DNA of 47,926 bases from Escherichia phage vB_Eco_ZCEC08, in sequence record PP213477.1. One strand, given 5' to 3'. The notes under the pieces are model-generated. The model had not been told where the DNA came from, did not search any database, and saw nothing but the letters and a program-made list of their open reading frames with translations. Below are positions 1 through 47,926 of this stretch, one piece after another (position 1 is the stretch's first letter; each line of letters opens with the position of its first letter). The translations under genes were made by a program, and so were the position numbers.

Positions 1-1425
1 ATGGCTAGAAAAAGACTCTCAAGTGTGGCAATCGAAAAACTTGAACAGGCGGTTGGAAACTCAACTTCAAAGCCTGAGTCTGCTGTATTTGGCATTGTTA
101 ACAAACTGCTTGCCGATGGTACGCCTAATGTTATAAAGCGCCTAAAAATGACATCAACAGGCGTATCTGAAACAAACGAAGAACCAACAATCCTCATTCC
201 CGAGAGAATGGAATTACTGCTTTATCCTCGCCGTTTCAAAGTGTTCTATGGAGGTAGGGGCAGCGGAAAGACGGCTAACGTTGTTTCTTACCTTATAGAA
301 AAGGCAAGATTTCGCAACAGCCGCGTCGGATGTTTCCGTGAGATACAGAACTCAATCAAAGAATCAAGCTATGCCGAACTGGTTGATGAGATAAACAGGA
401 AAGGACACACTCAGGAATATCGTTGCGTGGATGGTGAAATAACCCACCATTCAACGAGGTCAAAGTTTGTTTTCCGTGGTTTGTGGCGAAATATAACCGC
501 CATTAAGGGTATGGCTGGCCTTACAGATGTATTCTGTGAAGAATCAGAAAATATCAGCCAGGTTTCATGGGATACGCTAATCCCAACAGTCCGCGCCGCT
601 GGCTCTGAAATTATTATTGTTTTTAACCCAAACAAAGAGACGGACCCGACATGGACTAACTTTGTTGCGCCTTATATTGACAAGATGGTTGACGGCATAT
701 ATCAGGATGATGACATCGTTGTTGTTAATGTTAATTACATCCACAACCCGTGGTTCACGGAAGAACTTAAGCAGCACATGAACCAGATGAAAGCTGTGGA
801 TTATGATCGCTACCTTTGGGTGTATGAAGGCTTATTCAACAAGCGGTCTGACGAAGCTGTTCTCGGGGGGAAATGGCAAACACTCGACTTTGAACCATCT
901 CCTGAGTGGGGTGGGCCTTACTACGGCATTGACTTTGGTTTTTCTCAGGATGCAACAGCAGCAACTGAATCATATGTAGAAGATTTGGGTGATGGACGAA
1001 GAAACCTGTATATCTATCGTGACTTTGCAAAGGTTGGCCTTGAGATAACTGACACGCCGGAAGCGATGCGCTCAGCATTCCCAAATTCAGAGAAGTACAG
1101 ATGGTATGGGGATTGCGCAAGACCTGAAACAATAAGCCATATACGACGCTCTGGATTCGATATTCATCCGTGCGCAAAATGGCCGGGGAGCATTGAGGAC
1201 GGTATTACGTGGCTGCGTGGGTGTGACAGGATTTACGTGCACTCAAGATGCAGGCACGTCATTGAAGAGATGACAATGTACAGCTATAAGGTGGACAAAT
1301 TAACAGGTAACATACTCCCTGATATAGTTGATAAATACAATCACGCGATTGATAGTTTACGCTATGGACTTGGAGATCACATCGTTCAACGCGGTAGCGG
1401 GATGCTAATCCGGCGCAGGCGATAA
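1..1425 (+). CDS. terL: terminase large subunit
   Basis: 474 aa; P-loop FYGGRGSGKTA near N-terminus; sits upstream of portal; preceded around the circle by candidate terS and an HNH gene. Confidence 0.85.
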   Translation: MARKRLSSVAIEKLEQAVGNSTSKPESAVFGIVNKLLADGTPNVIKRLKMTSTGVSETNEEPTILIPERMELLLYPRRFKVFYGGRGSGKTANVVSYLIEKARFRNSRVGCFREIQNSIKESSYAELVDEINRKGHTQEYRCVDGEITHHSTRSKFVFRGLWRNITAIKGMAGLTDVFCEESENISQVSWDTLIPTVRAAGSEIIIVFNPNKETDPTWTNFVAPYIDKMVDGIYQDDDIVVVNVNYIHNPWFTEELKQHMNQMKAVDYDRYLWVYEGLFNKRSDEAVLGGKWQTLDFEPSPEWGGPYYGIDFGFSQDATAATESYVEDLGDGRRNLYIYRDFAKVGLEITDTPEAMRSAFPNSEKYRWYGDCARPETISHIRRSGFDIHPCAKWPGSIEDGITWLRGCDRIYVHSRCRHVIEEMTMYSYKVDKLTGNILPDIVDKYNHAIDSLRYGLGDHIVQRGSGMLIRRRR

Positions 1426-1441
1426 ATCCGCATCACCACAC

Positions 1442-1470
1442 TTGACCAATCTACACCGAGCGCATAGTAT
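1442..1470 (+). promoter_or_regulatory. sigma70-like promoter (TTGACC - 17 nt - TAGTAT) followed by ATCTACATCA motif
   Basis: hexamers read directly; lies 30 nt upstream of the ATG at 1502. Confidence 0.4.
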
Positions 1471-1501
1471 AATCTACATCAGGATTATCGGAGATATCAC
1501 T

Positions 1502-1708
1502 ATGCGCAGCTATGCAGGATTTACACAGGAGGAAAAAGAACAGGTTTACTCACTGGCGCGGGCTGGTGTGCCAGATGAGGTGATATGCCGTCGGTATGAT
1601 ATTGACGAGGATTTCCTGCTGCGCGTCATTGATGATGTTTTCGTTAACCTGCAGGAGAAGCGCGGGTACAAGGGTATCTGTTGCAAGAATGATTTTTTGA
1701 GAGGGTGA
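1502..1708 (+). CDS. hypothetical protein (68 aa)
   Basis: internal ATG (residue 21 of ORF 1442..1708) preceded by GGAGA; first gene after terL. Confidence 0.45.
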   Translation: MRSYAGFTQEEKEQVYSLARAGVPDEVICRRYDIDEDFLLRVIDDVFVNLQEKRGYKGICCKNDFLRG

Positions 1709-1709
1709 T

Positions 1710-2117
1710 GTGGTTAATAATAAATTAAAGAAAATAATCCGCGATGCTGCGGATAAGAAATACACCAAAAAGATTGATATATCATTCATTGATGGTGCTG
1801 GCCTGTACAATCACGCCTGTCATCTGAATGCAGTAAACAAGGCTCGCGATGGGAGTTCGTGTGCAGTGGTTGAAGTTGTGGTGATTGATGATAAGTCAGT
1901 GATTGCACATTACATCAATATGCAGTCAGATGGCTCTTATGTTGATTACACGCTTGGCTGGCACTGGTCTGGTGCTGATTACAGGTTTGTTCGGTTCGTC
2001 CCGTTTGCCGAGTGGTCGGATATTACAGGTTCGTTAAGCAGACTAAAGGCTGAGCTGTGCAAACCAGTGGCTAAATGGCAGAAGTTGTTAATGATAACTG
2101 ATGGTGAACTTTGTTGA
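1710..2117 (+). CDS. hypothetical protein (135 aa, GTG start)
   Basis: ORF track; GAGGGTGA ribosome-binding site just upstream; stop/start coupled to neighbours. Confidence 0.5.
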   Translation: MVNNKLKKIIRDAADKKYTKKIDISFIDGAGLYNHACHLNAVNKARDGSSCAVVEVVVIDDKSVIAHYINMQSDGSYVDYTLGWHWSGADYRFVRFVPFAEWSDITGSLSRLKAELCKPVAKWQKLLMITDGELC

Positions 2118-2122
2118 GGTGA

Positions 2123-2314
2123 GTGATGATTATTGATGAAACGAAAAATTGTTATGAACTGCAAGTTAGTCATAGCTTTGGTGATTACCCTATCATGATG
2201 CTTACTTCATTCCGTGAAGGTGATGATGTTAACTCTATCGGTATTGACAAACACCAAGCCATGCAACTAATCGAAGCCATGAAACGCTGGGTTAATGGTG
2301 AGGAGATTGAGTGA
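2123..2314 (+). CDS. hypothetical protein (63 aa)
   Basis: ORF track; junction GAGGTGAGTGATG couples it to the upstream gene. Confidence 0.45.
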   Translation: MMIIDETKNCYELQVSHSFGDYPIMMLTSFREGDDVNSIGIDKHQAMQLIEAMKRWVNGEEIE

Positions 2315-2499
2315 TGAGCGTTTATTTTATTCATGCTGAAGTTATGTGGGGTGGTGATACCATCAAGAAGATTTCATGTATGGCCTCTACAAGTAATGCC
2401 ATTGAGGCGTTTAACTCATTCATGAGTTGTAGTGAGGTTAATGAGTTTAAACTTGGTGGGTATGATGTTGTCATTGATAAACTGGAAAAGGTGGAGTGA
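2311..2499 (+). CDS. hypothetical protein (62 aa)
   Basis: ORF track; start overlaps upstream stop. Confidence 0.45.
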   Translation: MMSVYFIHAEVMWGGDTIKKISCMASTSNAIEAFNSFMSCSEVNEFKLGGYDVVIDKLEKVE

Positions 2500-2660
2500 T
2501 GGCGCTATTCTGGTCGTTCTGGATTCCACTTAATTTTATGTTCTGGTGGTTTATAGCAGCCGGAGTGCAAGAGCCAAGCAAGATACATTTCATGATTAGT
2601 TCATTTTTCGCTGTGATGACTGGTGTTGTGCCATGCTTGTTGTATCAATATTTCAAATAG
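2499..2660 (+). CDS. small hydrophobic protein (53 aa)
   Basis: hand-translated MALFWSFWIPLNFMFWWFIAAG...; ATG overlaps upstream TGA (GTGATGG); below the ORF-track cutoff. Confidence 0.35.
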   Translation: MALFWSFWIPLNFMFWWFIAAGVQEPSKIHFMISSFFAVMTGVVPCLLYQYFK

Positions 2661-2670
2661 AGGTGGAGTG

Positions 2671-2868
2671 ATGCATTTCAAATCACTAAATACCATAAGG
2701 AACGAGATGGTTGGTGGCAAATATAAAAACCACAGAGACGAAGTAGTAACCGTTGTTAATGTTGTTGGCGCTGGCGGTGGTTATCAGGTCCATTTTAATT
2801 ACGGCATGCCATACAATGTGGTTTGCGGACTTGGCAAGTTCAGGCAGCGATACCCGCATAAGGTTTAG
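2671..2868 (+). CDS. hypothetical protein (65 aa)
   Basis: internal ATG (residue 17 of ORF 2623..2868) preceded by AGGTGGAGTG. Confidence 0.45.
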   Translation: MHFKSLNTIRNEMVGGKYKNHRDEVVTVVNVVGAGGGYQVHFNYGMPYNVVCGLGKFRQRYPHKV

Positions 2869-2889
2869 CCATATACCATCCATGCTATA

Positions 2890-2917
2890 ATCCCATCCAA
2901 CGTGATGGGATTTTTTA
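2890..2917 (+). terminator. rho-independent terminator candidate (CCCATC..GATGGG + T-run)
   Basis: hairpin followed by TTTTTTATT between the early small genes and portal. Confidence 0.5.
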
Positions 2918-2927
2918 TTGGTGACAT

Positions 2928-4340
2928 ATGTCAAAAATTGATGCACTAAACGCTTATATACGCGACCGCGTAGCGAACAATAACCGGGCGATCCAGCAGC
3001 AACGGCTTTGCGCTGGCGGGAAGAATCTGGACCAGAAGCGAGAGTTCATGTGGAAGGAACTTGGCTACCCGCAGGAAATCACCGCCGAGATGTTCCGCTA
3101 TGCCTATGAGCGACACCCAGCCGCCGCCGCTGGAATTAACCGCATTATTAATAAATGTTGGCAGAAATACCCTGAAGTTATCGAAGATGGCGAGGATGAC
3201 AAGAACTCAACGACATGGGAGCTGTCCATCAACGACATGATGAAGCGCGCCTACCCGTTCATCAAGGAGGCTGATAAGCGCAACGCCATCAACCGCTATT
3301 CCGCTGTTATCCTGCAAATCCGTGACGGCAAACAGTGGAGTGAGCCTGTAGACATTACAAAAACCCGCCGCATTAAAGATAAATCCATCGCTCGCTTTAT
3401 TCCGGTATGGGAAGAGCAGCTACGCGTTAGCGCATGGAATAACGACGAAACCAGCGAAGACTACGGGATGCCTGAGATGTACGAATATCAGGAAAGCGCC
3501 GTGGAGGACTTCGATAGCGATGGCAAGCCTGAGCGTTCCGTGCAGATTCACCCTGACCGCATCATCATTCTGGCTGAGGGTAGTTTTGACGGCAGTATGT
3601 TCAGTGGCATCCCGATGTTGCGTGCTGGCTACAATAGCCTTATCGACATGGCTAAGGTTTCAGGTAGTTCAGCAGAAGGATTCCTGAAGAATGCCAGCCG
3701 TCAACTGGCTGTTAACTACACGAAGGACAACGTAACGCCAGCAAGCCTTGCGCAGTCTATGGGTGTCGATATTGAAGAACTCACTGACATCATGAATGAG
3801 AACATCGAAGCGCTAAACTCAGGCATCGACGCAGCTATGTTCACAATGGGGGCGGATGCAAAGGTGCTTGCCGTAACGCCAGCCGACCCGAAACCAACAT
3901 GGGAAGTGGCTGCCAACCAGTTCGCTGCATCAATGGCGCTTCCGTTCACCGTCATTTTTGGTCAGCAAACCGGACGCCTTGCGAGTGATGAGGACAAGAT
4001 GCAGGAGGCGATGACAGCCAAGCAGCGCCGCGAAACGTGGGTTGATTATGTCATCTCAATGTTCGTTGAGCGCATGATTCAGTTCGGCATTGTCGATAAA
4101 GCACCGGCAAATGGCTACAAGGTTAAGTGGGATGATCTGCTTGCCCCATCAGAGCTGGATAAAGCTGAATTGCTGTCCAAGCTCGCCACTGCGAACAAGT
4201 CCTTCTTTGATGCTGGTCAATCTGCACTGCTGACCGTCGATGAAGCTCGCGGCATGGTTGGCATGGAGCCGATTGAGCTTGATGAAAGCTACCGCGAAGA
4301 CACACCACCGGAAGACGAAAATGAAGATACTCCGGTTTAA
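2928..4340 (+). CDS. portal protein
   Basis: 470 aa; position directly after terminase region and before head morphogenesis gene; acidic C-terminus. Confidence 0.7.
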
Positions 4341-5271
4341 CGCAAGACTTCCACAGCCGCGCATATCGCAGAGTCTTACCGACCCATTAGGCGCTGCGGC
4401 TCGCCTGCCGAAGATGGACAAGGTGATAACGCGAAAATACAAACAACTCATGGCTCGTGCGCTCGAGTTGTTTCGCACTATTCCGAGCAGTCAGGCTAAC
4501 GCAGAGTCAAGTGGCCTGTATTTCTACGATTTCAGTAGTGCGCGGGCCGCCACTTTTATGGATGAGTTGCAGGCGCTGATTGACGAGATTCTGCTGGAAG
4601 GTGATGATTTCGGTCACGGCAGGATGTGGGCCAATGTGTTCATCGGTGATGCATATCAGGCGGGAACGCAGAAGGCAAACTCAGAGCTATCAAGTCTTTC
4701 TCCGGTTTATGCTGAACAGCGACCGATTGCTGCGATACTCTACAGTGAGCCTTACCTGAACAGGCTGCAACTGGCGTACACATCCGGATATTCAGACTGG
4801 CGCGGACTGAGTGATTACTCCCGTCAGCAACTGGCATCCGTCATCATGGAAGGTATTGCCCGTGGTGCTAATCCTCGCGATGTTGAAGCTGATATTGTTA
4901 AGCGTGTGGATGTGTCTCATAGCTACGCGAAACAGTTGGCGCAGACTGAAATAACCGGAACGCTGCGACAGGCAAACAGGCGGGAGGTCATTGAGGCACG
5001 CGAAGAGCTAGGCATTGAGACGGTGATGCTGTGGCAGTCGGCATTGATGCGCACAACCCGCCAGACGCACGCGGCGAGACACGGCCGGTTTTACACGCCA
5101 GAAGAGATTGACACGTTTTATAGTGAGAATGGCAATAGATATAATTGCCACTGCGCACAGACTCCGGCTTTGTTAATGGGTGGTAAGCCGGTCATTCTTG
5201 AATCGTCGCAGGGAAGGCTTGATAAGCAGCGAGAAGCATGGCAATCAGCCAACAAAAAGCCCTCCAAGTGA
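4321..5271 (+). CDS. head morphogenesis protein (Mu F / SPP1 gp7-like)
   Basis: start moved to ATG overlapping portal stop; [16 protein letters not shown] resembles the F-family motif. Confidence 0.6.
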
Positions 5272-5290
5272 GGGCTTGGTTTTATTTCGA
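5256..5290. terminator. bidirectional rho-independent terminator
   Basis: AGCCCTC-CAAGT-GAGGGCT then TGGTTTTATTT; stop codon of the upstream gene lies in the hairpin; convergent genes on both sides. Confidence 0.55.
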
Positions 5291-5360
5291 TGGCTTATCG
5301 CATTTACTGCACCAACTATTAAGGCACATGCGCCCGCAATGCTTGCATATAGGCCACATA

Positions 5361-6011
5361 TCATTCCTCCAGTTTTACGCCGGGAATCTTGCCTGCCGCG
5401 ATGGCTTCATAAATTAGCTTGGCCTCATCCTCGCGCTTGTAATCTTGAGCTACCATTTCTAACACCGCGCAGATAGACTCAAGTACAGCCTCATGCTTCT
5501 TTTCTGCTTCTGTGCGTAATGGCTTTAGGCTTTCAGGAACGAAGCAGCATGATCGAACAGCACCACCCTCATCCCAGTAGCAAACAGCCACATCGTTTCC
5601 GTCCGTTGTTGTTTTGTGTGCCACAACTTCCATTTCAGTGCCGGCATCAGGAATCCAGGCATTGCGGTATCCTAACTTTGGATTGATGAAGAATTCTACT
5701 TTTGCACCAACTGGAGGTAGGCCTTCGCCGCTCCATGTTGGCTTTTGTGATGCTGCGAGTGCGGATTCGTATTGGCTTCTAGTTACCATTGCCTTCGTAC
5801 TGTCGCATGATAAAACAACATCATTATCAACTCGCCAGTATCCAACTAAACCCTTTCCTGTTCTGTGTCTCCAGCCAAATCCATTGTATCTTGGGTCATC
5901 ATAACGCCAGCAACAGAAATAGCCGTCGGCATCTTGCGTAACCACCACCCAGTTTTCGTTCCACCCACCACGCTTAGGTAATTCTTGAACTAACAGTTCG
6001 ATAAGTTTCAT
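5361..6011 (-). CDS. hypothetical protein (216 aa)
   Basis: ORF track; last gene of a minus-strand cassette. Confidence 0.55.
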   Translation of the reverse strand: MKLIELLVQELPKRGGWNENWVVVTQDADGYFCCWRYDDPRYNGFGWRHRTGKGLVGYWRVDNDVVLSCDSTKAMVTRSQYESALAASQKPTWSGEGLPPVGAKVEFFINPKLGYRNAWIPDAGTEMEVVAHKTTTDGNDVAVCYWDEGGAVRSCCFVPESLKPLRTEAEKKHEAVLESICAVLEMVAQDYKREDEAKLIYEAIAAGKIPGVKLEE

Positions 6012-6012
6012 T

Positions 6013-6264
6013 TCATTCTCCTAGCGCTTTGTTGATTGCACCCTGTGCTGATTTAATCACTTCTGGGTATGCGTCATTCCAGTTTTGCTTATACGCTTTA
6101 CTGAGCATTTTCTGCAAAGCCTCCAGAAGCTCAGGTGCTGCAGCGATGACGTTGGCATCATCCTTATTGGTAACATCGCACACGAATTGGTCGCCATTAC
6201 TATAGACCCCACCAAGTTCATCATCGTAATGCCACGACCCAGGGATTCCTTTAAATTCTTCCAT
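6013..6264 (-). CDS. Ead/Ea22-like family protein
   Basis: motif IAAAPELLEAL...INKALGE shared with ORF 37490..37771; ATG at residue 5 of the track ORF. Confidence 0.5.
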   Translation of the reverse strand: MEEFKGIPGSWHYDDELGGVYSNGDQFVCDVTNKDDANVIAAAPELLEALQKMLSKAYKQNWNDAYPEVIKSAQGAINKALGE

Positions 6265-6272
6265 CACCAACC

Positions 6273-6416: not shown

Positions 6417-6440
6417 GATTTCTCCCTCACTCATCATTTA

Positions 6441-8790: not shown

Positions 8791-9092
8791 TATTTAATCT
8801 CTCCGTTCAGTTCATTAACAATTAACGTTGCATAGCCAGCAATATCTTTCCAGCTGTCATCATAAGTCGGGTCGCCATTCAGAATGCGCCCAATCTTGTG
8901 CTGAATCATGTCGAGCGCCTCGCGTTGACTTGGTGTGAGATTGCGCCAGCCATCTACCTCGCGCATCACATCTTTCAACTCCTGCATAATTTCAGCGCCG
9001 TCTTTGAATTTACCGTATCGACTACCGCGTTCGGTGATGAGTCGCTCTGTTGCGTCAGTATGGCGCTTATCGCCCGTGATTTGTGAACTCAT
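8790..9092 (-). CDS. hypothetical protein (100 aa)
   Basis: ORF track. Confidence 0.5.
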   Translation of the reverse strand: MSSQITGDKRHTDATERLITERGSRYGKFKDGAEIMQELKDVMREVDGWRNLTPSQREALDMIQHKIGRILNGDPTYDDSWKDIAGYATLIVNELNGEIK

Positions 9093-9579
9093 TGTGATGC
9101 ATTCTCCTGAATTCTTTTATTTTTGCTTCTGCTTCTCTTATGTCGGAAAAGTAACCAACTGTGAATCTTTTGCCATTTACTCCAACTCTTGCATGCCACT
9201 TGTTGTGCGATGAACTCCAGTTAACCCCCTTGATACCGCTAGTGTTGTTTTTGTTCATTGCTTTGTTGTGGCTATTCTCAAATTTGCTGGCCTCCCTTAA
9301 ATTGCACGCCCTGTTGTCATTGCGAATGCCATTAATGTGGTCAATCATTTCACTTGCTGGCGCGCCATGAATGCATATCCATGCCAATCTGTGAGCAAGA
9401 AAAGCCCTACCGCAAAGAATTATTTGCACATATCCATCTGGCTTTAAGTAGCCAGCCACACTCCCTTTTTCTGCAATCCTATTCCTTGTCTTTAGCCATT
9501 TAAATTCCCCAGTTAGTGGATTGTAGTAAAGGTAACTCAATATAAACTCCCTACTCGGCTCATCTCTCCTATGCCTCAT
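9067..9579 (-). CDS. HNH homing endonuclease (AP2-domain type), paralogue 1
   Basis: HRLAW..., IDHINGIRNDNRACNLREAS, GVNWSSSHNKWHARV; paralogous to 10322..10861 and 47414..47926. Confidence 0.7.
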   Translation of the reverse strand: MRHRRDEPSREFILSYLYYNPLTGEFKWLKTRNRIAEKGSVAGYLKPDGYVQIILCGRAFLAHRLAWICIHGAPASEMIDHINGIRNDNRACNLREASKFENSHNKAMNKNNTSGIKGVNWSSSHNKWHARVGVNGKRFTVGYFSDIREAEAKIKEFRRMHHNEFTNHGR

Positions 9580-9881: not shown

Positions 9882-10079
9882 ATGCGATACAAAGAAATAG
9901 CAGCGAGATACCAGAAGGAAGTTCGCGAGGTTATGGAAATCCTTAACGTTCGCGAGGATACCATTAAGTTTGTGGAAACCGCCATGTGTTCACTGGCGCT
10001 TGAAGCGGAGGTTGCGGGTCGTGAAAAGGCTGACGAACTTATATCTGCGGTGGTTTATAGTTCAACCAGTAACGGTTGA
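9882..10079 (+). CDS. hypothetical protein
   Basis: internal ATG (residue 11 of ORF 9852..10079) after AAAGGTGA. Confidence 0.45.
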   Translation: MRYKEIAARYQKEVREVMEILNVREDTIKFVETAMCSLALEAEVAGREKADELISAVVYSSTSNG

Positions 10080-10139
10080 AGATGAAGGTTATCTGTGCGT
10101 TGAGCACGTTGTTATCAAATTCTACGGGAGAAATTATAA

Positions 10140-10334
10140 ATGGCGCATGACGAACTGTACGAAGAATCGTTAATCCAGAGGTTGAATGAAGTTGAGCGCA
10201 CTCGCGAATGGCTGGAGTGCGAGTTACGAGAAGTGCGCAACCGCCTGCAACGCAAGCGCAGTCAGCAAAGAGATGTCATCGACTGGTCTGGGGGTACACC
10301 TAAATTTAACAATCTGGGAGAATGGTTGAAATGA
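10140..10334 (+). CDS. hypothetical protein (64 aa)
   Basis: ORF track. Confidence 0.4.
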   Translation: MAHDELYEESLIQRLNEVERTREWLECELREVRNRLQRKRSQQRDVIDWSGGTPKFNNLGEWLK

Positions 10335-10861
10335 GCAACATTAGTCAGGAAAGCATTTTAAAGTTCCTCCAGTATGATGAAAATACAGGAAACTTTCTAT
10401 GGATTGATAATTTCTCAAGAAAATCAAAGAAAGGGAAGGTGGCTGGAGGTATTACATCGCATGGGTATTGGAGAATTCAACTCCCCATCGGGAGGTTTTA
10501 CGCACACAGAATGGCGTGGATTGTTTGCAATGGAGATATACCAAACGGATATGAGATTGATCACATAAATGGGAACAAGAAAGATAATCGCATCAGCAAC
10601 CTAAGATTGGTCACAAGAGGTCAAAATGTTATGAATGTAGGCGTGAAAAACAATAATACAAGCGGAGTTAAGGATGTTGTTTGGGACTCTTCGCGAGAAA
10701 GGTGGGGGGTTCAAATTACAGCCAATGGCAAGCATTATTATGGAGGTAGATTCTCGTCAATAACACAAGCAAAAGAGGAGAGGAACAGGCTCATAAAGAT
10801 GGTTCACGGGAAATTTTTGAATACAAAAGGTGAGCAATATGACACTACTAATGAACGATGA
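10322..10861 (+). CDS. HNH homing endonuclease (AP2-domain type), paralogue 2
   Basis: HRMAW..., IDHINGNKKDNRISNLRLVT, GVKDVVWDSSRERWGVQI. Confidence 0.7.
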   Translation: MVEMSNISQESILKFLQYDENTGNFLWIDNFSRKSKKGKVAGGITSHGYWRIQLPIGRFYAHRMAWIVCNGDIPNGYEIDHINGNKKDNRISNLRLVTRGQNVMNVGVKNNNTSGVKDVVWDSSRERWGVQITANGKHYYGGRFSSITQAKEERNRLIKMVHGKFLNTKGEQYDTTNER

Positions 10862-11075
10862 GAAATTACTTGAATGCCCGTTTTGTGGTTGTGATGACGT
10901 AAGTGTTATTGATGACGGCGAATGGTTGCACGTTGAGTGCGGAGATTGTTTTTGCCGCACTGACTCGTATTGCTGCGCATCCACGGCAATGAAGAAATGG
11001 AACACAAGAGGTGGACACCTCTACACTTCCGACGACTTCAATCAGGCAGCAGAGGAGCGCGATTATGGATTATAA
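10830..11075 (+). CDS. Lar-like restriction alleviation protein (zinc ribbon)
   Basis: N-terminal LLECPFCGCDD...C..C pattern typical of the Lar family; exact start uncertain. Confidence 0.45.
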   Translation: MSNMTLLMNDEKLLECPFCGCDDVSVIDDGEWLHVECGDCFCRTDSYCCASTAMKKWNTRGGHLYTSDDFNQAAEERDYGL

Positions 11076-11553
11076 ATCACAAATCATGCGCGTGATTGTC
11101 AATCATCCAGGGGCAACGCGTGCATATATTGAAAAGCATTGCGGAGGTAAGCATTCAAGCACCACAACGCACCGTTTACATGAGATGCTTGCGCTTGGAT
11201 TCATTCGTCGAGAGAAGTCCGTGATTCGTGGTGGTAAGTGGCAGTATAAGTATTTCATCTCTGAGGATGCAGCAGGTATTGATGATGCGATTAAGTGCCA
11301 TTTGCTTGATAACGCTGGCGCAGAGGTGAAAGAAATCAGTGCAGCCACTGACCTTGATTACCGAATTGTAAAAAGCCGCATCCGCATTATGTTTCATAAC
11401 GGTGATGTGACGCGAAGCTATGACCACCACAAGAAGCTGTGGCGTTACTCATGGAAGGAGCAGGAAGTAAATATGAGCAATCTGTTTAATTCACTTCTTC
11501 GCAGCGCAAGAGGTCATTATGGGAAAAGCGAAACGCAAGAAGCAGGAGTATGA
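11065..11553 (+). CDS. hypothetical protein
   Basis: internal ATG (residue 19 of ORF 11011..11553) overlapping upstream stop. Confidence 0.5.
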   Translation: MDYKSQIMRVIVNHPGATRAYIEKHCGGKHSSTTTHRLHEMLALGFIRREKSVIRGGKWQYKYFISEDAAGIDDAIKCHLLDNAGAEVKEISAATDLDYRIVKSRIRIMFHNGDVTRSYDHHKKLWRYSWKEQEVNMSNLFNSLLRSARGHYGKSETQEAGV

Positions 11554-11678
11554 GCAATTACCGCCATGCAAAATGTCAGGAATGCCGCAACAGGAGGATG
11601 TGATTCTCACCGAAGCTGAGTGGCGCAAGGTGGCGAGGGTGCAAATCATGTTCCGCAAACTTGCTGAGGATGTACTAA

Positions 11679-12083
11679 ATGAGATGGGCTATTAAGCATA
11701 AATCTGGCAGAACTCTGTTTGTGACATCAGATGAGTTTATTGCCAATAACCGTAAAGAGATGGGCTGGATAGTGGAGGAAGTGAAGATGACGAGTAGAGA
11801 GCAGTTTGAAAAAGAAATGAGTGACAAGTATGAGTGGTTCAGTGATGCGATCGCTTGTGCTGATTTTTGCGGTGACGATGATGATGGCTACTATGTTGGC
11901 GGTGATTACCTCTATTATGGGAAGTCATGTTCAGAGGCTTTGTTTTGGTTATGGCGAGGATGGCAGGCATCGCGCGCAGCAATTGAGATTCAAGCGTGTC
12001 CATGTCCAAACGATCATGGCCCGAATGTTGATGACCATTATCGCGAGCAAATTAATAACGCAGGCTTAAAGGTGAAAAAATGA
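11679..12083 (+). CDS. hypothetical protein (134 aa)
   Basis: ORF track. Confidence 0.5.
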   Translation: MRWAIKHKSGRTLFVTSDEFIANNRKEMGWIVEEVKMTSREQFEKEMSDKYEWFSDAIACADFCGDDDDGYYVGGDYLYYGKSCSEALFWLWRGWQASRAAIEIQACPCPNDHGPNVDDHYREQINNAGLKVKK

Positions 12084-22617: not shown

Positions 22618-22694
22618 TGGTGGACACGGACGGATTTGAACCTTCAATCAGCCGATTATTAGTCGGTTGCTTTAACCAATTAAGCTACGCGTCC
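22618..22694 (-). tRNA. tRNA-like gene, isotype undetermined (hand fold gives anticodon AAU)
   Basis: minus strand reads GGACGCG-TA-GCTT-AATTGGTTA-AAGC-A-ACCGA-CTAATAA-TCGGC-TGATT-GAAGG-TTCAAAT-CCGTC-CGTGTCC-ACCA: 7-bp acceptor stem (one G.U), 4-bp D stem, T-loop TTCAAAT, encoded CCA; one mismatch each in anticodon and T stems. Confidence 0.5.
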
Positions 22695-41432: not shown

Positions 41433-41458
41433 TAAACCCTCCATCTGGAGGGTTTTTG
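41433..41458. terminator. bidirectional rho-independent terminator
   Basis: ACCCTCCA-TCTG-GAGGGT then TTTTGTT. Confidence 0.55.
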
Positions 41459-41875
41459 TTATTCTTTGAACTCTGGCGCTTCAGTCCAGAAAGCTACATT
41501 TCGCAGCGACTTACCAGTGTGATTGCACCAGTATATTCCTGAGTCGTCATACCTGGCAGTAACCTTGACGCGATCAGCATCAATAATAACAACCTCCTGT
41601 CCATCTTTAGGGTCGAAAAGACGCGCATCTTTCCAGTTGGCAATCTCATTAAAGGAAAGAAGAATATAGCCGGGAAGATAATCTCCGACATCATCGATGT
41701 GATCTATGGCTCTCTCCGTTCTCTCTCCTGTGTAGCCTCCATTCCACTCATAAAGAATGATAGTGTCTCCAACCTTAAAATCACGGCCCTTCTTTATTAT
41801 TTCAGCTTTCTTGTGCCCGGTAACTACAGGCCAGAAGTGCTCAGGTAAAATTTTAAGTTCGTGTGTTTTGCTCAT
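41459..41875 (-). CDS. ASCH-like / DUF3850-like protein
   Basis: THELKILPEHFWPVVTGHKKAEIIKKGRDFKVGDTIILYEW pattern. Confidence 0.45.
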   Translation of the reverse strand: MSKTHELKILPEHFWPVVTGHKKAEIIKKGRDFKVGDTIILYEWNGGYTGERTERAIDHIDDVGDYLPGYILLSFNEIANWKDARLFDPKDGQEVVIIDADRVKVTARYDDSGIYWCNHTGKSLRNVAFWTEAPEFKE

Positions 41876-43467
41876 TTCAAACCCCTCATAAATCTCATGC
41901 GCTTAACAGCAGCAGAAAGATAATTTCTAACCGTTGAGTTCATTCGCAGACCATCCCATGAGCCATCACCGCACATCTTTATAGCTCTTGGGTTATCCCT
42001 GTCCAGCATTAGTGGTGAATGCTTATTTTCCTCAATAGCAAGAAGAACCTCATAAACAAACTTATCAGGTGTTAGTGTGATGTTATTAGAGTCAGCAGAA
42101 TTGATTATCTTTTTAATTCTATCACGACACAGCTTGTTCTTTATAACAGACAAGTAAGGCGTTTTAATGAATGCCTGTGATTCACAAATTCGCTTAATTT
42201 TTTCTACAATGTTCTCCCATTCAGTATTTTCAAGTCCATCAAACTCCTGTTCGCCCTCAAGGAATCTTTGCAGACCAGCGAGATGCTCAAGAACTACGAT
42301 ATATCCCCATTCGACATGCTCCATCGTAACTGCTGGCGTCATTCCACGGCGACTTGACAGATCTGCGTAAGCCGCAAGCGTTGCAAGGTCTACAATCATT
42401 AGCCCCATGCGCGGGATAACGTCACCAACAACACCATCGCGATCACCAAGCTCACTTTCCAGTTTCATAGACAGAGATCTGTGCAGTTTTTTCACATCAT
42501 CATCAGCCCATACAGCGTTAGTTTTCGCGGTAAGAATCCTACCCTTCCACTCATTGATTATTTTTCTTGAAAGTGTGCCGCTAGCTTCCACATCCTTCAT
42601 CGCTGGCATTTCCTCACCAGCAAGATGTCCAAGCTGAAACAGCACTCGCCCCATGCCGCCATCTTTCTGCCATGAACGCGCAGCATCTATTCCCTGCTCT
42701 GGAGTGACAGTAATCAGCGGAACAAATTTTGCGTTTTCAATTCCACCGTCTTTTGTTGCAAGTTCGTACTCATTCATTGCCGACTTGAGCGCGCGCCCAA
42801 CGCTGTGGTCCATCATCGCAAGGCGCTTATAATCTATGACGCCTTTCCCATCATCACCACCAGTAAGTGGCACTATCCATCCCTCAGCACTTGCTGCCGC
42901 CATGATGCGTTTTGGGTTTTGTTCCCAAGTAAGGTTTTCAAGCAGCTCCTTGATTATTGGTCTGTTAGGCACCCACACGCCGCCATCAGTGAGGCCTCTA
43001 TACCACGCCATAGTACCGCCAAGATATGCATTGCGCGGGTTGTTCCAGTCTTCAAGATGTTGTTTGTCATCGTTCACAACGTAGAGCAAAGAACCACCTC
43101 CAGCAATCAGGTCTAACTGCATCTGTTTCGTCGAGGTTGATTTAGATGCGCAAACTCTGGAGCCAATTCCCAGTGCATTGGAATATGCCCTAACGAAACT
43201 CACAGGGGCACCCTTACCTGCACCAGAGCGAGCCACCAGAAATATACCAGTATTGCAGATACTACCTGTTGGACCAATCAAATATCGTCCAGCCATCGCC
43301 TGAGTAAGACCCAAGGCACCAGTTAAGCGATATCTCTCCCCATCATTACGGCGCTCAAAGTTTTTCGCAATCTCATCCATAAACTCACCAAGTGCACCAG
43401 GAGCCTTCCTGTTTATACCCATAGCCATAGAATCAAAATCAATAGCGCCCATCAATATACTCTCCAT
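41872..43467 (-). CDS. hypothetical replication-module protein (531 aa)
   Basis: ORF track; degenerate P-loop-like LVARSGAGKGA; function not recognised. Confidence 0.5.
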   Translation of the reverse strand: MESILMGAIDFDSMAMGINRKAPGALGEFMDEIAKNFERRNDGERYRLTGALGLTQAMAGRYLIGPTGSICNTGIFLVARSGAGKGAPVSFVRAYSNALGIGSRVCASKSTSTKQMQLDLIAGGGSLLYVVNDDKQHLEDWNNPRNAYLGGTMAWYRGLTDGGVWVPNRPIIKELLENLTWEQNPKRIMAAASAEGWIVPLTGGDDGKGVIDYKRLAMMDHSVGRALKSAMNEYELATKDGGIENAKFVPLITVTPEQGIDAARSWQKDGGMGRVLFQLGHLAGEEMPAMKDVEASGTLSRKIINEWKGRILTAKTNAVWADDDVKKLHRSLSMKLESELGDRDGVVGDVIPRMGLMIVDLATLAAYADLSSRRGMTPAVTMEHVEWGYIVVLEHLAGLQRFLEGEQEFDGLENTEWENIVEKIKRICESQAFIKTPYLSVIKNKLCRDRIKKIINSADSNNITLTPDKFVYEVLLAIEENKHSPLMLDRDNPRAIKMCGDGSWDGLRMNSTVRNYLSAAVKRMRFMRGLK

Positions 43468-43781
43468 ACTCGCAAGAATTTGCCAGGGATAATACCTTGT
43501 TTCACCGTTAACACAGCGCCAACCCTGTCCGCCTCAATTTTTAGCGCCTTCTGAAGTGACGTCATTGTCATCTGAAAACCTCGCTCTATATCGTATGCGT
43601 AGCACCCATCTCTTCTACCAATCAAAATTGAAGTTGAATACCCGTTCTCAAAGTAAAACTGACACCCATCAGGAGCGGTAAGATTATTTATCACGTCGTG
43701 AGCAAGCGATGTCGTTACAGGGAATATAGGCGCGCAACTCATACCTACCTCACTCAACTCGCTTAATGTGCAAAACTTCAT
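43452..43781 (-). CDS. hypothetical protein
   Basis: ORF track. Confidence 0.4.
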   Translation of the reverse strand: MKFCTLSELSEVGMSCAPIFPVTTSLAHDVINNLTAPDGCQFYFENGYSTSILIGRRDGCYAYDIERGFQMTMTSLQKALKIEADRVGAVLTVKQGIIPGKFLRVWRVY

Positions 43782-43980
43782 CGAAATATGAGCACGTTCT
43801 GAATTTCATCCCAAAATCCTCACCAACCCTTCCGAGACACGCGCGAAATCTTTCAACAGACAGACCTTTATATGCAATGTCCTCATAAGCAATCGAATTA
43901 ACCTGACCAACATCCATATGTTTTGCAACGCGATACACAAACTCCATCTTTGAACCATCACGATACATTTTGTTTCTCAT
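43750..43980 (-). CDS. hypothetical protein (first gene of the replication operon)
   Basis: ORF track 43750..44013; start moved to the ATG that follows GGAGGT. Confidence 0.4.
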   Translation of the reverse strand: MRNKMYRDGSKMEFVYRVAKHMDVGQVNSIAYEDIAYKGLSVERFRACLGRVGEDFGMKFRTCSYFDEVLHIKRVE

Positions 43981-44013
43981 AGTAACCTCCATCTGAATTC
44001 CAGCAGTAACCAT

Positions 44014-44635
44014 AGATAAAAAATAAAATTAACGCAACACAAAACAGGTCTAACCAGCAACAATAGCTACCACACTTAATAACTGGTCAGACCACCATCC
44101 CGTATCTGATATATGTGGATGGCGCCTGTCGTTCAATTTGAACTCGATTTTTACCTAATTTACCGTATATTTATCGGTCGGTTTTTTGCATAAATAATTG
44201 ATTTATAGTATTTTACCTGTTTTACCGTAACTCTAAGGAGTATTTTCATCATTAAGAGTGGTAGTATATTAATTGGTCTAATTTTAAAGAAATCTAATAA
44301 AATCAATATATTAATATAAAAGAATAGCTTACTTACTTCTATAGTATTTACCTGGTAAAACCGGTAACTCCTCCGAAGGCCGCGTCATTACTGGATTCAT
44401 TTTTACCGCCTGTAGGTAAATACAGTAGTTTTCAATCCGTTATTGCTCTTCTAAGCTGTTGATTACCGGTACTTTATTTGGGAAACCGGCATTTACCGGT
44501 TTTTGTGGTGTGATTAATAATCGAGCAACTGGTCCTGTTTCACCAGAACCAACTAATGCGACGCCTGAAAATCATGTTGACGTAGAATCATCATTGATGT
44601 AGATTGAACTAATCGAAACAAACGAGGGTGAAGAG
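44014..44635. repeat. AT-rich non-coding region with iteron-like TTTACC(G) repeats and ACCGGT palindromes; candidate origin
   Basis: direct TTTACC copies near 44148, 44159, 44211, 44221, 44347, 44401; inverted copy near 44415; ACCGGT near 44360, 44465, 44495; no ORF of 60 aa or more. Confidence 0.35.
44577..44605 (+). promoter_or_regulatory. sigma70-like promoter TTGACG-17-TAGATT
   Basis: hexamers read directly; about 30 nt upstream of the ATG at 44636. Confidence 0.45.
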
Positions 44636-44782
44636 ATGAAAATCAAAGACCGAGAAGAATTTGAAGATGCTCAGGCTATGGCGCGCATTGCAGTTGAGCG
44701 CACAAATAACAGTATACCTGCCGACGCATTCTGGAACGCAGCAATGCAGGCGTTAATCTCAGCATATGGCTTAAGCAAATGA
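44636..44782 (+). CDS. small hypothetical protein (48 aa)
   Basis: hand-translated MKIKDREEFEDAQAMARIAVERTNNSIPADAFW...; GAGGGTGAAGAG upstream. Confidence 0.4.
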   Translation: MKIKDREEFEDAQAMARIAVERTNNSIPADAFWNAAMQALISAYGLSK

Positions 44783-44874
44783 CAGGCGCATCATTCGAAC
44801 TTATCGCCAGTCTGGTTATCGTGGCATTCGTCATTATCGCAGTGGCAGTTTCAAAATCAGGGTATAAGGAGTAG
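44779..44874 (+). CDS. small hydrophobic peptide (31 aa)
   Basis: hand-translated MTGASFELIASLVIVAFVIIAVAVSKSGYKE; ATGA overlap. Confidence 0.3.
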   Translation: MTGASFELIASLVIVAFVIIAVAVSKSGYKE

Positions 44875-44962
44875 AAAAATGAGCAACTGGCATAACGAAC
44901 ACATCATGCAGTGGTTTCGCCGTCGCATTAAGTCAATTACTAACTCTTATGAGGTTTAACAA

Positions 44963-45145
44963 ATGGCAAAGACTATATATCGTCGCGAGAAGCTGGAACC
45001 TGAACTCGGTCACGTTGGCGCGCAGAACTTTATGAGCAAGCAGGCACGCAATGCAATGGAATCTATCCGAGTGAATCGCGTTGTGCGCGTGTTTAATGGT
45101 GAAGGCAAGCGAAGAGTAATGGATGAGCTGATTATCGTGTTCTGA
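44963..45145 (+). CDS. hypothetical protein (60 aa)
   Basis: ORF track. Confidence 0.4.
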   Translation: MAKTIYRREKLEPELGHVGAQNFMSKQARNAMESIRVNRVVRVFNGEGKRRVMDELIIVF

Positions 45146-45181
45146 CCTCGATTCAGGTGACTTATTTTTAATGGTGATGAT

Positions 45182-45409
45182 ATGGCAAAAGTGAAAACAT
45201 ACGAGTTCTGGCTTGCACAGAACAAAATGTATGCAAGCAAGGAAATCAAGAGAGCACGCTGGTGGAATAAATTGTTAATCCTGTCCGGCTGCATAGTGCT
45301 GGCAAAGTGCAAATTCAAAGCGATTGACATCACCGATGAGGATGCGCTCACAATCGCAAAGATTGAGTTTGAAGAAGATGGATATCACGAAGAAATTATT
45401 GGGGGTTAG
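45182..45409 (+). CDS. hypothetical protein (75 aa)
   Basis: ORF track. Confidence 0.45.
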   Translation: MAKVKTYEFWLAQNKMYASKEIKRARWWNKLLILSGCIVLAKCKFKAIDITDEDALTIAKIEFEEDGYHEEIIGG

Positions 45410-45412
45410 GGT

Positions 45413-45766
45413 ATGAGTGAAGTTAATTACCAGGCACTGCGTGGGATAGCAAAACAAGCAACACAAGGCGAATGGGTCGCATTTATTTCGCAGGGTACTG
45501 GTACGTATGCGGTGCATACGCCAGGTGATAAACGATGTGAAGACATTATCAAATGGACCGGCTTTGATGGACAGAAAAACGCAAAGAACAACGCTCGTTA
45601 TATCGCAGCTTTAAACCCAGCAGTGGTTCAGGCACTACTGGATGAACTGGAAGCTCAAAGTAAACGCATTGCAGAACTGGAGTCTGCATTAAATCGCCAT
45701 TATGAGATCCCTGACGTTTATGATATGGCGATAAAGCAATTCGAAAGCCTGGCTAAAAGTGAATAG
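45413..45766 (+). CDS. Ead/Ea22-like family protein (third paralogue)
   Basis: ARYIAALNPAVVQALLDELEAQSKRIAELE matches the Ea22-type IAA..P..V.ALLD.LEA motif. Confidence 0.5.
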   Translation: MSEVNYQALRGIAKQATQGEWVAFISQGTGTYAVHTPGDKRCEDIIKWTGFDGQKNAKNNARYIAALNPAVVQALLDELEAQSKRIAELESALNRHYEIPDVYDMAIKQFESLAKSE

Positions 45767-45829
45767 CTACCCGTTCATATTAATTATCAGTGCGCTCTAT
45801 GTGGCGCACGCTTTAGTGGAGGCATACTC

Positions 45830-45937
45830 ATGAACAACCACAAACGACGCCGATACACCACTGGCGCTAAAATCTTCCTTGCTGTTTATGTGCTGGCCCT
45901 GGTGGCAGCCATTGCAGGAGTTGTGCATTATGTTTAA
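45830..45937 (+). CDS. small hydrophobic peptide (35 aa)
   Basis: hand-translated MNNHKRRRYTTGAKIFLAVYVLALVAAIAGVVHYV; GGAGG upstream. Confidence 0.3.
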   Translation: MNNHKRRRYTTGAKIFLAVYVLALVAAIAGVVHYV

Positions 45938-46109
45938 CGATATCAGCGACGCAATGCAGAACATGTGGGAACGCTACTGGAACAGCATGAAGACATGTCA
46001 CTACATGATGGTACAGATAGGTAGTTACATTGAGGTTGTTCCTGACAATGGTGTGCACGACATTAAGTACATGTGCTCAACGAGGGATTATGCTAATGCA
46101 AACCACTAA
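45930..46109 (+). CDS. hypothetical protein
   Basis: internal ATG (residue 18 of ORF 45879..46109) overlapping upstream stop. Confidence 0.35.
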   Translation: MFNDISDAMQNMWERYWNSMKTCHYMMVQIGSYIEVVPDNGVHDIKYMCSTRDYANANH

Positions 46110-46263
46110 ACAGAAAGTCTGGCAACTCGCAAAGCAGCACGAATTAGACGATTTCATCGAGAAGGTTGCAAAGACATTCCCTGACGCGCTTGAAGTCGTT
46201 CATGTGCAGACGCGAAATGAAAATGCATGGTGCTACACAAAAAATCATACAAATGGTAGATGA
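46096..46263 (+). CDS. hypothetical protein
   Basis: internal ATG (residue 23 of ORF 46030..46263). Confidence 0.35.
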   Translation: MQTTKQKVWQLAKQHELDDFIEKVAKTFPDALEVVHVQTRNENAWCYTKNHTNGR

Positions 46264-46264
46264 A

Positions 46265-46690
46265 ATGAAGCTAACAAAAAAACAACGCGAAGAGCTACGC
46301 ATGAAGTTCGGTGGTCGCTGTGCTTATTGTGGGTGTGAGCTACCCGAGAAAGGTTGGCATGCAGACCATGTTGAACCAGTGCTACGTAAATCTGAGCAGT
46401 GCATGAAGGCAGCGGCGAAAGGGATTTTCAAGCTGAAGGCAACCGGTGAGCTATATCGACCAGAAGCCGAGCGACTGGAAAACCTTTACCCTGCGTGCGC
46501 CCCCTGCAATCTGATGAAAACTTCCTATTCCCTGGAAATGTTCAGGAAGCAGGTATCTCTTCAGGTTGCTCGTGGGCGCAAAAGCAGCATGAATTTCCGC
46601 ACTGCAGAGCGTTTCGGTCTTATCGCCGTGGTGGAGAGACCAGTTGTTTTCTGGTTTGAGAAATACCAGGAAGAGAACGAAAAAAAATAA
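46265..46690 (+). CDS. HNH endonuclease (start uncertain, ORF track 46166..46690)
   Basis: CAYCGCEL...WHADHVEPV...NLYPACAPCNLMK. Confidence 0.6.
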   Translation: MKLTKKQREELRMKFGGRCAYCGCELPEKGWHADHVEPVLRKSEQCMKAAAKGIFKLKATGELYRPEAERLENLYPACAPCNLMKTSYSLEMFRKQVSLQVARGRKSSMNFRTAERFGLIAVVERPVVFWFEKYQEENEKK

Positions 46691-46777
46691 ATGTGTTTAT
46701 GATGCTCTGTTGGCAAGCGCGATAATGATGGTGTACAATAAACGCATAACCACCATTGCTTTCACTTATATCATCAC

Positions 46778-46810
46778 CCAACCTTTAACCCGCCTTGTGC
46801 GGGTTCTTTT
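46778..46810 (+). terminator. rho-independent terminator
   Basis: CCCGC-CTTGT-GCGGG followed by TTCTTTTTT. Confidence 0.5.
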
Positions 46811-46870
46811 TTATCTACGTCTATGTGTTAAAATTAGCGTATGTGAGTTACTTAAAGAACACAAAAAGAC

Positions 46871-47311
46871 ATGGCGAATCCAAATCCAAAACACAAGTTT
46901 TCCTCTACAAATCAACCGCCTCCGCGCGGTAAGAGTTATCGCACAGTGCTGCTTGAGGCGCTTCGTGCTGCAAATACACCGATGAATGAGATTGAATTCG
47001 TCACGTATTACATCAATAGGGCCATGACATGCGAAGACGCTCAGGCAACTGGTATGCTTCGAGAGATATTCCTGCGGCTCAACCCAATTCCTAAGCCTGT
47101 AGCTCCTCCTGTGGAGTTTGACTTCCCTGCTGACGGAACTCCGGTTCAGAAAATGGATGCAATCATCAAGGGTGTCTCCACTGGCGTCGTGCCTGCTGAC
47201 ATCGGCAAGATGATGGCTGACATTATCAAGTCTGGCCTTGATATTCAGGAAACCACCGAACTCGCAGCGCGACTTGAGCGACTGGAGAAATTGCTGGAAC
47301 AGCAACAGTAA
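46871..47311 (+). CDS. putative terminase small subunit
   Basis: 146 aa upstream of terL around the circle, separated only by an HNH gene; assignment by position and size only. Confidence 0.35.
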   Translation: MANPNPKHKFSSTNQPPPRGKSYRTVLLEALRAANTPMNEIEFVTYYINRAMTCEDAQATGMLREIFLRLNPIPKPVAPPVEFDFPADGTPVQKMDAIIKGVSTGVVPADIGKMMADIIKSGLDIQETTELAARLERLEKLLEQQQ

Positions 47312-47413
47312 CTGATTTATAATAATTAATGCGGCAAAGGGTAGCTCCCTGCCCGGATTGGTCTCCGGGCTGCCGCATCCATCCAGTGACCGCCTTTAAC
47401 CGAGGATTCAATA

Positions 47414-47926
47414 ATGCGACCCTTAAAAGAAGAAAAACTCACGCAAGACAGGCTAAAAGAGTTGCTGCATTATAACCATGATACTGGTATTTTCACATGG
47501 GTTCAGCGCGCCTCAAAAAGCGTAAGAGTTGGTAATTCAGCTGGCAGTAAGAATAAGTCAGGCTATATAGATATACGCATCGATAAGTCTTTACACAAAG
47601 CTCATCGGCTTGCGTGGCTTTACATTTATGGTGTGTGGCCCAATGGGAAAATAGATCACATCAATAACGTGAAGACAGATAACAGAATCTGCAACCTGAG
47701 AGAAGCAAGCAATAATGAAAACGGATGGAATGCTGGTAAACCATCGACAAATACGTCAGGAGTAAAAGGTGTGAGTTGGGATGCAGAGAAAAATAAATGG
47801 AAGGCGCATTGCAGGGTTTTTGGGAAAAAATATACAGTAGGTAGGTTTTCATCAAAAGAATATGCTGAGAGAGCCGTGGCGGAGTTCAGAGAGAAACATC
47901 ACGGGGAGTTTTTTAATCATGGCTAG
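47414..47926 (+). CDS. HNH homing endonuclease (AP2-domain type), paralogue 3
   Basis: HRLAW..., IDHINNVKTDNRICNLREAS, GVSWDAEKNKWKAHCRV; stop lies inside the repeated ATGGCTAG that also starts terL. Confidence 0.7.
   Translation: MRPLKEEKLTQDRLKELLHYNHDTGIFTWVQRASKSVRVGNSAGSKNKSGYIDIRIDKSLHKAHRLAWLYIYGVWPNGKIDHINNVKTDNRICNLREASNNENGWNAGKPSTNTSGVKGVSWDAEKNKWKAHCRVFGKKYTVGRFSSKEYAERAVAEFREKHHGEFFNHG

Follow-up and report, generated by a model that had tools for sequence, protein, structure and literature searches.

The 8 bases shared by the two ends of record PP213477.1 (Escherichia phage vB_Eco_ZCEC08; the whole stretch of 47,926 nucleotides is called the window here) are almost certainly a bookkeeping product of opening a circular assembly at the terL start, the virion DNA being most likely headful-packaged and free of fixed termini at either window end. 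The duplicate itself is a correct and ordinary observation and not a real DNA feature, and the biology beneath it (an HNH/terL gene overlap and a permuted, probably headful genome) is already known for the phage group.

The end duplicate and its gene boundaries

As a sequence-only reading of the window had stated, bases 1..8 and 47919..47926 both read ATGGCTAG (Table 1). This is the longest exact terminal repeat of the window (8/8 identical), and its two terminal copies are the only ones, with none elsewhere in the window on either strand. Nothing longer, whether exact or imperfect, emerged when the first 5 kb were compared with the last, apart from 11-12-mers attributable to chance. The limits of the octamer are exact gene limits: it opens with the A of the terL ATG and closes with the G of the TAG that ends the HNH gene. 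The 8-nt out-of-frame overlap proposed for the two genes is thus present as described, with ..AAT CAT GGC TAG lying over ATG GCT AGA and the terL ATG at offset +1 in the HNH frame, and the unique length follows as claimed (47,926 - 8 = 47,918 bp). In the genome of Escherichia phage HC6, both end copies align to one single copy, at 529..536.

Table 1. Positions of the terminal repeat, the genes around the HNH/terL junction and the associated sequence elements
Feature	Position	Strand	Remarks
ATGGCTAG, copy 1	1..8	+	terL codons 1-2 plus 2 nt; record start at terL ATG
ATGGCTAG, copy 2	47919..47926	+	Final 8 nt of HNH gene (..cAT GGC TAG)
Single-copy junction sequence, ..TTTAATCATGGCTAGAAAAAGAC..			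Circle with one ATGGCTAG copy
terL, large terminase subunit, 474 aa	1..1425	+	Begins ATG GCT AGA; Pfam and TIGR01547
terL 5' tract linked to HNH cassette	1..25	+	Allele comparison
p146, conserved helical 146-aa protein, candidate small terminase subunit	46871..47311	+	Position only
Variable segment carrying HNH gene	47305..47918	+	Homology to Bas77 interrupted
HNH endonuclease gene, 170 aa	47414..47926	+	Ends AAT CAT GGC TAG; last 8 nt overlap terL in circle
GGGGAG, likely terL Shine-Dalgarno	47903..47908	+	10 nt upstream of ATG at 47919
HNH-linked allele, terS-terL junction, ATGGCTAGAAAAAGACTCTCAAGTG..
HNH-free allele (Seszw_1 or Bas77), terS-terL junction, ATGGCTCGTAAACG..

The duplicate most likely arose in the following way. 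The complete genome of a Skatevirus-like siphovirus would have come out of assembly as a circle, which was then cut, manually or by a script, so as to make terL base 1 the new first position. In the circle the upstream HNH gene ends 8 nt inside terL, and a record drawn to begin with the whole of terL and to finish with the whole HNH gene would hold both genes intact, so that the 8 shared bases would appear once at either end. On paper, the real sequence is a 47,918-bp circle. The duplicate is bounded by annotated gene limits here and likewise in the record of Salmonella phage vB_SenS_ST1UNAM. The manner in which the submitter edited the record is our guess, supported by one observation, the same pattern in ST1UNAM. 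Among relatives, starting a record at the first base of a terminase gene is a documented convention (PMC11990801), and in the case of Skate a PCR spanning the contig ends was used for closure (PMC6606912).

Related records and continuity of the junction

The closest record is that of ST1UNAM (OQ469755), with about 97-99% identity over colinear blocks. It begins with the terL ATG, ends with the HNH stop codon and carries the same ATGGCTAG at both ends, but represents a separate isolate of 47,877 bp in which several mosaic blocks are replaced; window positions 1713-2488 and 41470-44571, for example, have no match in it. The Escherichia phages HC6 (OL362274), 6947 (ON637251) and HC8A (PQ280049) share the HNH/terL junction, with its annotated 8-nt overlap, and are colinear after rotation. 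In their records the first base lies about 500 bp upstream of the window's start point, ahead of the HNH gene, so that the junction is shown once and an end duplicate is lacking. More widely, the window shares TerL, the portal and the p146 ORF upstream of terL with the Skatevirus/Roufvirus-type siphoviruses (the proposed 'Skateviridae', including Skate, LPST10, KlebP_265 and ZCKp20p), whose genomes measure 45-49 kb and whose assemblies are circular.

A query of 800 bp was made by joining the window ends with one ATGGCTAG copy removed. This de-duplicated junction is matched along all 800/800 bp, as one unbroken alignment of 99.8% identity, by HC6, 6947 and HC8A. At least 80% of it is covered in 26 GenBank records, where it lies at widely differing positions and on either strand. 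The circular junction that had been claimed therefore reads through, with its register kept, in many independent genomes. The overlap of 8 nt is annotated in both annotated relatives that were checked, HC6 (HNH 24..536, terL 529..1953) and LPST10, the latter being a circular record. Whole-genome comparison showed the window to be a rotation of HC6 in which each record closes the other's break: window 47391..47926 corresponds to HC6 1..536 and window 1..1712 to HC6 529..2240, while position 47390|47391 of the window is where the end of the HC6 record meets its start.

The same arrangement was seen in independent assemblies. Within the assembly collection, 82 blocks contain the exact HNH protein, and ten independent contigs encoding the identical protein were taken from Logan, ENA and NCBI. 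All ten place HNH at 10001-10513 and terL at 10506-11930, with the overlap at an interior position, and all ten give junction-spanning alignments of 2.8-3.9 kb in register, gap-free in 8/10. Each contains a single ATGGCTAG, and the tandem form ATGGCTAGATGGCTAG is absent from all 10. The break points of these metagenomic contigs were considered as evidence of permutation and rejected, since the look-up ranks those with most flanking DNA first and thereby biases where breaks fall.

The large terminase subunit and the mode of packaging

TerL matches the Pfam families Terminase_3 (6e-36) and Terminase_3C, as well as TIGR01547 (PBSX-family TerL; 126 bits, cut-off 105), and is 100% identical in amino-acid sequence to the TerL of ST1UNAM. 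Its closest solved chains are 4IDH for the N-terminal/ATPase domain (E 2e-35) and 2WBN for the nuclease domain (4.5e-8), which we take to be Sf6 gp2 and SPP1 G2P, respectively, both from headful packagers. Set beside the headful (pac) systems of Sf6/P22 and SPP1, the phage is alike in these ATPase and nuclease matches, and the records of its relatives open at widely scattered positions and close each other's breaks, whereas the small terminase candidate found here is without detectable similarity to known small subunits.

By analogy with these systems and with sequenced relatives, the virion DNA is most likely linear, terminally redundant, circularly permuted and packaged by a headful mechanism, in which case there would be no fixed termini at the window ends. 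KlebP_265, whose TerL is 61% identical to that of the window over its full length, yielded no termini in PhageTerm analysis, and its genome was regarded as permuted with terminal redundancy (PMC11769527), while the Roufvirus-like ZCKp20p was assigned headful packaging by PhageTerm (PMC9901506). The conclusion that the window ends are not physical genome ends thus appears well supported, if indirectly, by the type of TerL and by PhageTerm analysis of two relatives, the latter having only about 60% TerL identity. Packaging data for Skatevirus sensu stricto are absent from the publications on Skate, IME207, KFSST1, PSH-1, the CECAV phages and ASO78B, as well as from the 2024 Foods study of two lytic Salmonella phages (PMC11476292).

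The hexamer GGGGAG upstream of the second ATGGCTAG copy is conserved in HC6, LPST10 and IME207 and likely serves as the ribosome-binding site of terL. In the linear record, terL stands at the very start without upstream sequence and its GGGGAG lies at the opposite end.

Other explanations of the repeat

The view that virion DNA truly carries these 8 bp as a direct repeat at its termini, with physical window ends, is suggested by the existence of the repeat alone and is highly improbable. Direct terminal repeats that serve packaging measure, as far as known, upwards of about a hundred bp, whereas the window ends share 8 nt and no longer repeat of the T7 type; moreover, these 8 bp coincide to the base with a start and a stop codon, the single-copy junction is continuous in the 26 GenBank records and the 10 independent contigs, TerL resembles headful terminases and relatives show no termini. 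Equally improbable is the prospect that ATGGCTAG represents a cohesive (cos) overhang of 8 nt, entered at both ends by the submitter. Its length falls within the range of cos overhangs, and an HNH gene beside a terminase gene recalls the HK97-type cos phages, but the octamer is not conserved, HNH-free relatives with a closely related terL reading ATGGCTCG instead. The affiliation of TerL with the Terminase_3/PBSX family and with the chains 4IDH and 2WBN also speaks against an overhang, as do the absence of fixed termini in the PhageTerm analyses of relatives and the homing type of the HNH_3 protein, which some close relatives carry and others lack; furthermore, an exact fit of an overhang to the gene boundaries would need coincidence.

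A simple assembler overlap left on the ends of a circular contig, without any deliberate opening at terL, would likewise make the record a circle, and De Bruijn graph assemblers do leave end repeats of this kind. Such a remnant would be of k-mer length, tens of bases instead of 8, and could fall anywhere, but here its limits are the first base of terL and the end of the HNH stop codon, and ST1UNAM shows the same gene-bounded pattern; this origin is very unlikely as well. Least tenable of all is a likeness of the two ends by chance, the probability of an end match being 1.6e-5 as expected from base composition and 2.7e-5 from random 8-mer pairs drawn from the window, and relatives having a single copy to which both ends align; this reading can practically be dismissed. 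The opening of a circular assembly at terL remains the preferred explanation.

For users of the record, the consequence is one of record hygiene only: the genome is in truth 47,918 bp long, not 47,926 bp, and the 8-bp repeat should not be taken for a terminal repeat or a cos site. The PP213477.1 and ST1UNAM records could mislead tools that read completeness or packaging type off terminal repeats. In addition, the linear record parts terL from its likely ribosome-binding site and splits the HNH cassette, so that both are easily overlooked.

The HNH gene as a mobile cassette

The HNH protein matches Pfam HNH_3 (1e-13; 51 bits against a cut-off of 24.8) and the HNH endonuclease family phrog_99 (1e-67), and shows a weak AP2 match below the Pfam cut-off. 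The gene behaves as a mobile cassette situated between the candidate small-terminase gene and terL, together with a recoded stretch of the first 25 nt of terL. Homology to the HNH-free phage Bas77 (98.4%) ends at 47304 and restarts at 47919; in Bas77 the intervening segment is replaced by about 150 nt with a 52-aa hydrophobic ORF. The same 52-aa ORF occupies the same position in BS5, while in Seszw_1 the segment is replaced by nothing. Counted per 30-nt block, terL nt 1-30 shows 0 differences among HNH-carrying genomes and 8-10 in HNH-free ones, and the two junction alleles are listed in Table 1. HNH abuts terL in 9/9 contigs with the window's terL allele and in 0/19 with the other allele. As the cassette includes the recoded terL 5' tract, the record break cuts through it.

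In comparison with free-standing phage HNH homing endonuclease genes, the HNH_3 catalytic domain is shared and the gene occurs sporadically at one fixed locus among close relatives, with a linked terL flank, whereas the AP2-type DNA-binding domain falls here below the Pfam cut-off. These features suggest, with somewhat better than even confidence, that HNH invades HNH-free relatives by homing at their terS-terL junction, the recoded terL tract shielding the genome that carries the gene. A homing HNH gene at the terS-terL junction is an ordinary kind of element. The 8-nt overlap may also couple translation of HNH to that of terL.

Recruitment of HNH into packaging, for example in the initiating or the headful cut, as for the HNH proteins of HK97-type cos phages, would, if true, be a novelty in a phage whose TerL is of the headful type, but is judged very improbable. 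An HNH accessory of the HK97 type is obligatory, whereas HNH is missing in 19/19 other-allele contigs, and the TerL of the window belongs to the Terminase_3/PBSX family and not to the cos type of HK97.

The candidate small terminase subunit

The gene p146, upstream of the HNH cassette, encodes a protein for which family and fold searches returned no family or fold match; it is proposed as a candidate small terminase subunit by its position. Its homologues adjoin terL closely: that of Seszw_1 overlaps terL directly by 11 nt, and in 3 IMG/VR contigs the homologue stops 1-7 nt ahead of the terL ATG.

The terminal octamer and its flanking genes

As the sequence-only reading had stated, bases 1..8 and 47919..47926 of the window both read ATGGCTAG, and 8 bases is also the length of the longest exact terminal repeat. 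A search of both strands revealed no copies of ATGGCTAG within the window besides the two terminal ones, and when the outermost 5 kb at either end were compared at high sensitivity, no longer or imperfect terminal repeat emerged. The HNH endonuclease gene at the window end closes with AAT CAT GGC TAG and the large terminase gene, terL, opens with ATG GCT AGA, so the octamer is bounded exactly by gene edges: it begins with the A of the terL ATG and finishes with the G of the HNH TAG. The frames of the two genes differ by one base, in keeping with the out-of-frame overlap proposed in the same reading; the 8-nt overlap is also annotated in HC6 and LPST10 (see below).

In the linear record, which starts at the terL ATG, nothing precedes the terL copy at position 1; GGGGAG at 47903-47908, 10 nt 5' of the ATG at 47919, is likely the terL ribosome-binding site. 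The terL product also matches the TIGR01547 PBSX-family TerL model (126 bits, cut-off 105), and the HNH protein shows a weak Pfam match to AP2, below the cut-off.

Coordinates of the features discussed
Feature	Position	Strand	Assignment or remark
terL, large terminase subunit	1..1425		Pfam Terminase_3 (6e-36) and Terminase_3C
170-aa ORF	9067..9579	-	block colinear with ST1UNAM 8904..9416
tRNA-Ile, anticodon AAT	22618..22694	-	single gene; strand opposite to flanking head-tail genes
Further HNH-type ORF	46166..46690	+	phrog_2118, Pfam HNH
146-aa conserved protein, all-helical	46871..47311	+	candidate small terminase subunit by position
HNH endonuclease	47414..47926		Pfam HNH_3 (1e-13); phrog_99
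Putative mobile unit	47305..47918 and 1..25 (first ~25 nt of terL)		contiguous in the circle

Continuity of the junction

The window end was joined to its start with one octamer copy removed, and 800 bp across this junction were compared with GenBank phages. In the Escherichia phages HC6, 6947 and HC8A, the de-duplicated junction was matched in one piece (800/800 bp, 99.8 %), and at least 80 % of the query was covered in 26 records, among which the position of the junction is widely scattered and both strands are represented. HC6 is annotated with HNH at 24..536 and terL at 529..1953, and the same 8-nt overlap is shared by the annotated genes in the circular record of LPST10, an HNH-carrying relative. 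Whole-genome comparison showed the window to be a rotation of HC6. Window 45824..47390 corresponds to the end of the HC6 record and 47391..47926 to HC6 1..536, and the HC6 record break is therefore continuous inside the window; since window 1..1712 corresponds to HC6 529..2240, both octamer copies land on a single HC6 copy.

As an independent check, contigs encoding exactly the window's HNH protein, which is indexed in 82 blocks of an assembly collection, were looked up, and ten long ones from Logan, ENA and NCBI assemblies were compared. In all ten, terL begins 8 nt inside the HNH end and the de-duplicated junction aligns in register over 2.8-3.9 kb at 98-99 % identity; eight alignments are gap-free, and two contain small indels away from the junction. 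Tandem ATGGCTAGATGGCTAG, the product of literally joining the window end to end, was present in none of these ten contigs.

Origin of the duplicate

The repeat is an artefact of record linearisation and no feature of the phage DNA, and the underlying biology has been described before in this group of phages. For relatives of the phage, it is a stated convention that a circular contig is opened at the first base of a terminase gene (PMC11990801). Most simply, the circle would have been cut at the terL ATG while the last gene, HNH, was kept whole, whereby the 8 shared bases would have been written twice. The closest record, that of Salmonella phage vB_SenS_ST1UNAM (OQ469755; ST1UNAM here), encodes a TerL protein 100 % identical to that of the window and likewise opens at the terL ATG and closes at the HNH stop codon, with ATGGCTAG at both ends. 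The sequence-only reading was right to interpret the repeat as a linearisation duplicate at the terL start; its view of the record as a circularised genome is upheld by the HC6 rotation and by junction continuity in the 26 GenBank records and ten contigs, and its unique length of 47,918 bp stands. The stated length of OQ469755 (47,877 bp) is 8 bp too long owing to the same duplicate.

A chance match of the ends is excluded by its probability, 1.6e-5 from base composition and 2.7e-5 from random 8-mer pairs drawn from the window, and by the alignment of both copies to one copy in relatives. An overlap left at the contig ends by the assembler would be expected to be as long as the k-mer and to lie at an arbitrary point, neither of which fits the repeat. 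A true 8-bp terminal repeat of the phage DNA and a cos overhang written at both ends both fail as explanations on the exact coincidence of the repeat with gene boundaries, on the continuous junction in many genomes and on the headful-like type of TerL. Moreover, the octamer is not conserved, HNH-free relatives having ATGGCTCG instead.

Among solved structures, TerL is closest to chain 4IDH over the N-terminal ATPase domain (E 2e-35) and to chain 2WBN over the nuclease domain; these are Sf6 gp2 and SPP1 G2P, from two headful packagers. The TerL of KlebP_265 is 61 % identical to that of the window over its full length, and in KlebP_265 PhageTerm found no termini, the DNA being judged terminally redundant and permuted (PMC11769527). 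The Roufvirus-like ZCKp20p was classified as headful by PhageTerm (PMC9901506), and the Skate contig was closed via PCR across its ends (PMC6606912). On the basis of these relatives, we think that the virion DNA is probably headful-packaged and circularly permuted, in which case no fixed terminus would coincide with either window end.

The HNH cassette and the linked terL flank

Between the 146-aa ORF and terL, the HNH gene forms a variable cassette. In the HNH-free relative Bas77, homology to the window ends at 47304 and restarts at 47919, the gap holding a 52-aa hydrophobic ORF that is also annotated there in BS5, while in Seszw_1 a 98.6 % identical homologue of the 146-aa ORF overlaps terL by 11 nt with nothing between. 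This direct overlap with terL in HNH-free relatives makes the 146-aa ORF a candidate small terminase subunit, an assignment that is positional only, as sequence-family and fold searches yielded no match. The N-terminus of the protein bears the motif MANPNPKxKFSSxNQP and its C-terminal helix is long; its homologues, where named or traceable, are all from phage or phage-like contigs. The authors of the KlebP_265 study did not find a small terminase subunit (PMC11769527).

Across the HNH-carrying genomes examined, terL nt 1-30 do not vary, and this holds for IME207 too, which has an HNH body of another type than the window's; in HNH-free genomes, 8-10 of these positions differ. LPST10 and Bas77 have downstream terL polymorphisms in common despite their differing 5' tracts. 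Among evaluable IMG/VR contigs, an HNH gene abuts terL in 9/9 with the terL allele ATGGCTAGAAAAAGACTCTCAAGTGTGGC and in 0/19 with ATGGCTCGTAAACGNCTNTCCGC (Fisher exact probability 1.4e-7 by our own arithmetic, in which independence is overstated because the genomes are related). In this set, roughly the first 25 nt of terL and the presence of HNH co-segregate without exception. The HNH genes of the ATGGCTAGAAAAAGACTCTCAAGTGTGGC contigs are of two types, ~92 % and ~44 % identical to the window HNH; these types, only ~44 % identical to each other, agree in their 3' ends and in the adjoining terL flank. A free-standing homing endonuclease whose flank is protected or co-converted would be expected to leave this pattern, and the sequences suggest that the terL flank may be the recoded or co-converted target site of such a putative enzyme. 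The artificial record break falls within the putative mobile unit.

Other genome features

With two further HNH-type ORFs (table), the genome contains several such endonuclease genes. ST1UNAM 8904..9416 is annotated as a homing-endonuclease zinc-binding loop protein, and related contigs have a 170-aa HNH_3 gene at the position corresponding to the window's 170-aa ORF.

Blocks exchanged among phages of Salmonella, Escherichia and Klebsiella make up a mosaic genome. Window 1713..2488, 10337..10995 and 41470..44571 have no megablast match to HC6 or ST1UNAM, the two closest genomes examined, and 41927-44571 mostly matches ASO78B and Bas81 (~91 %). A tRNA-Ile is also annotated in HC6, at the place corresponding to that of the window.
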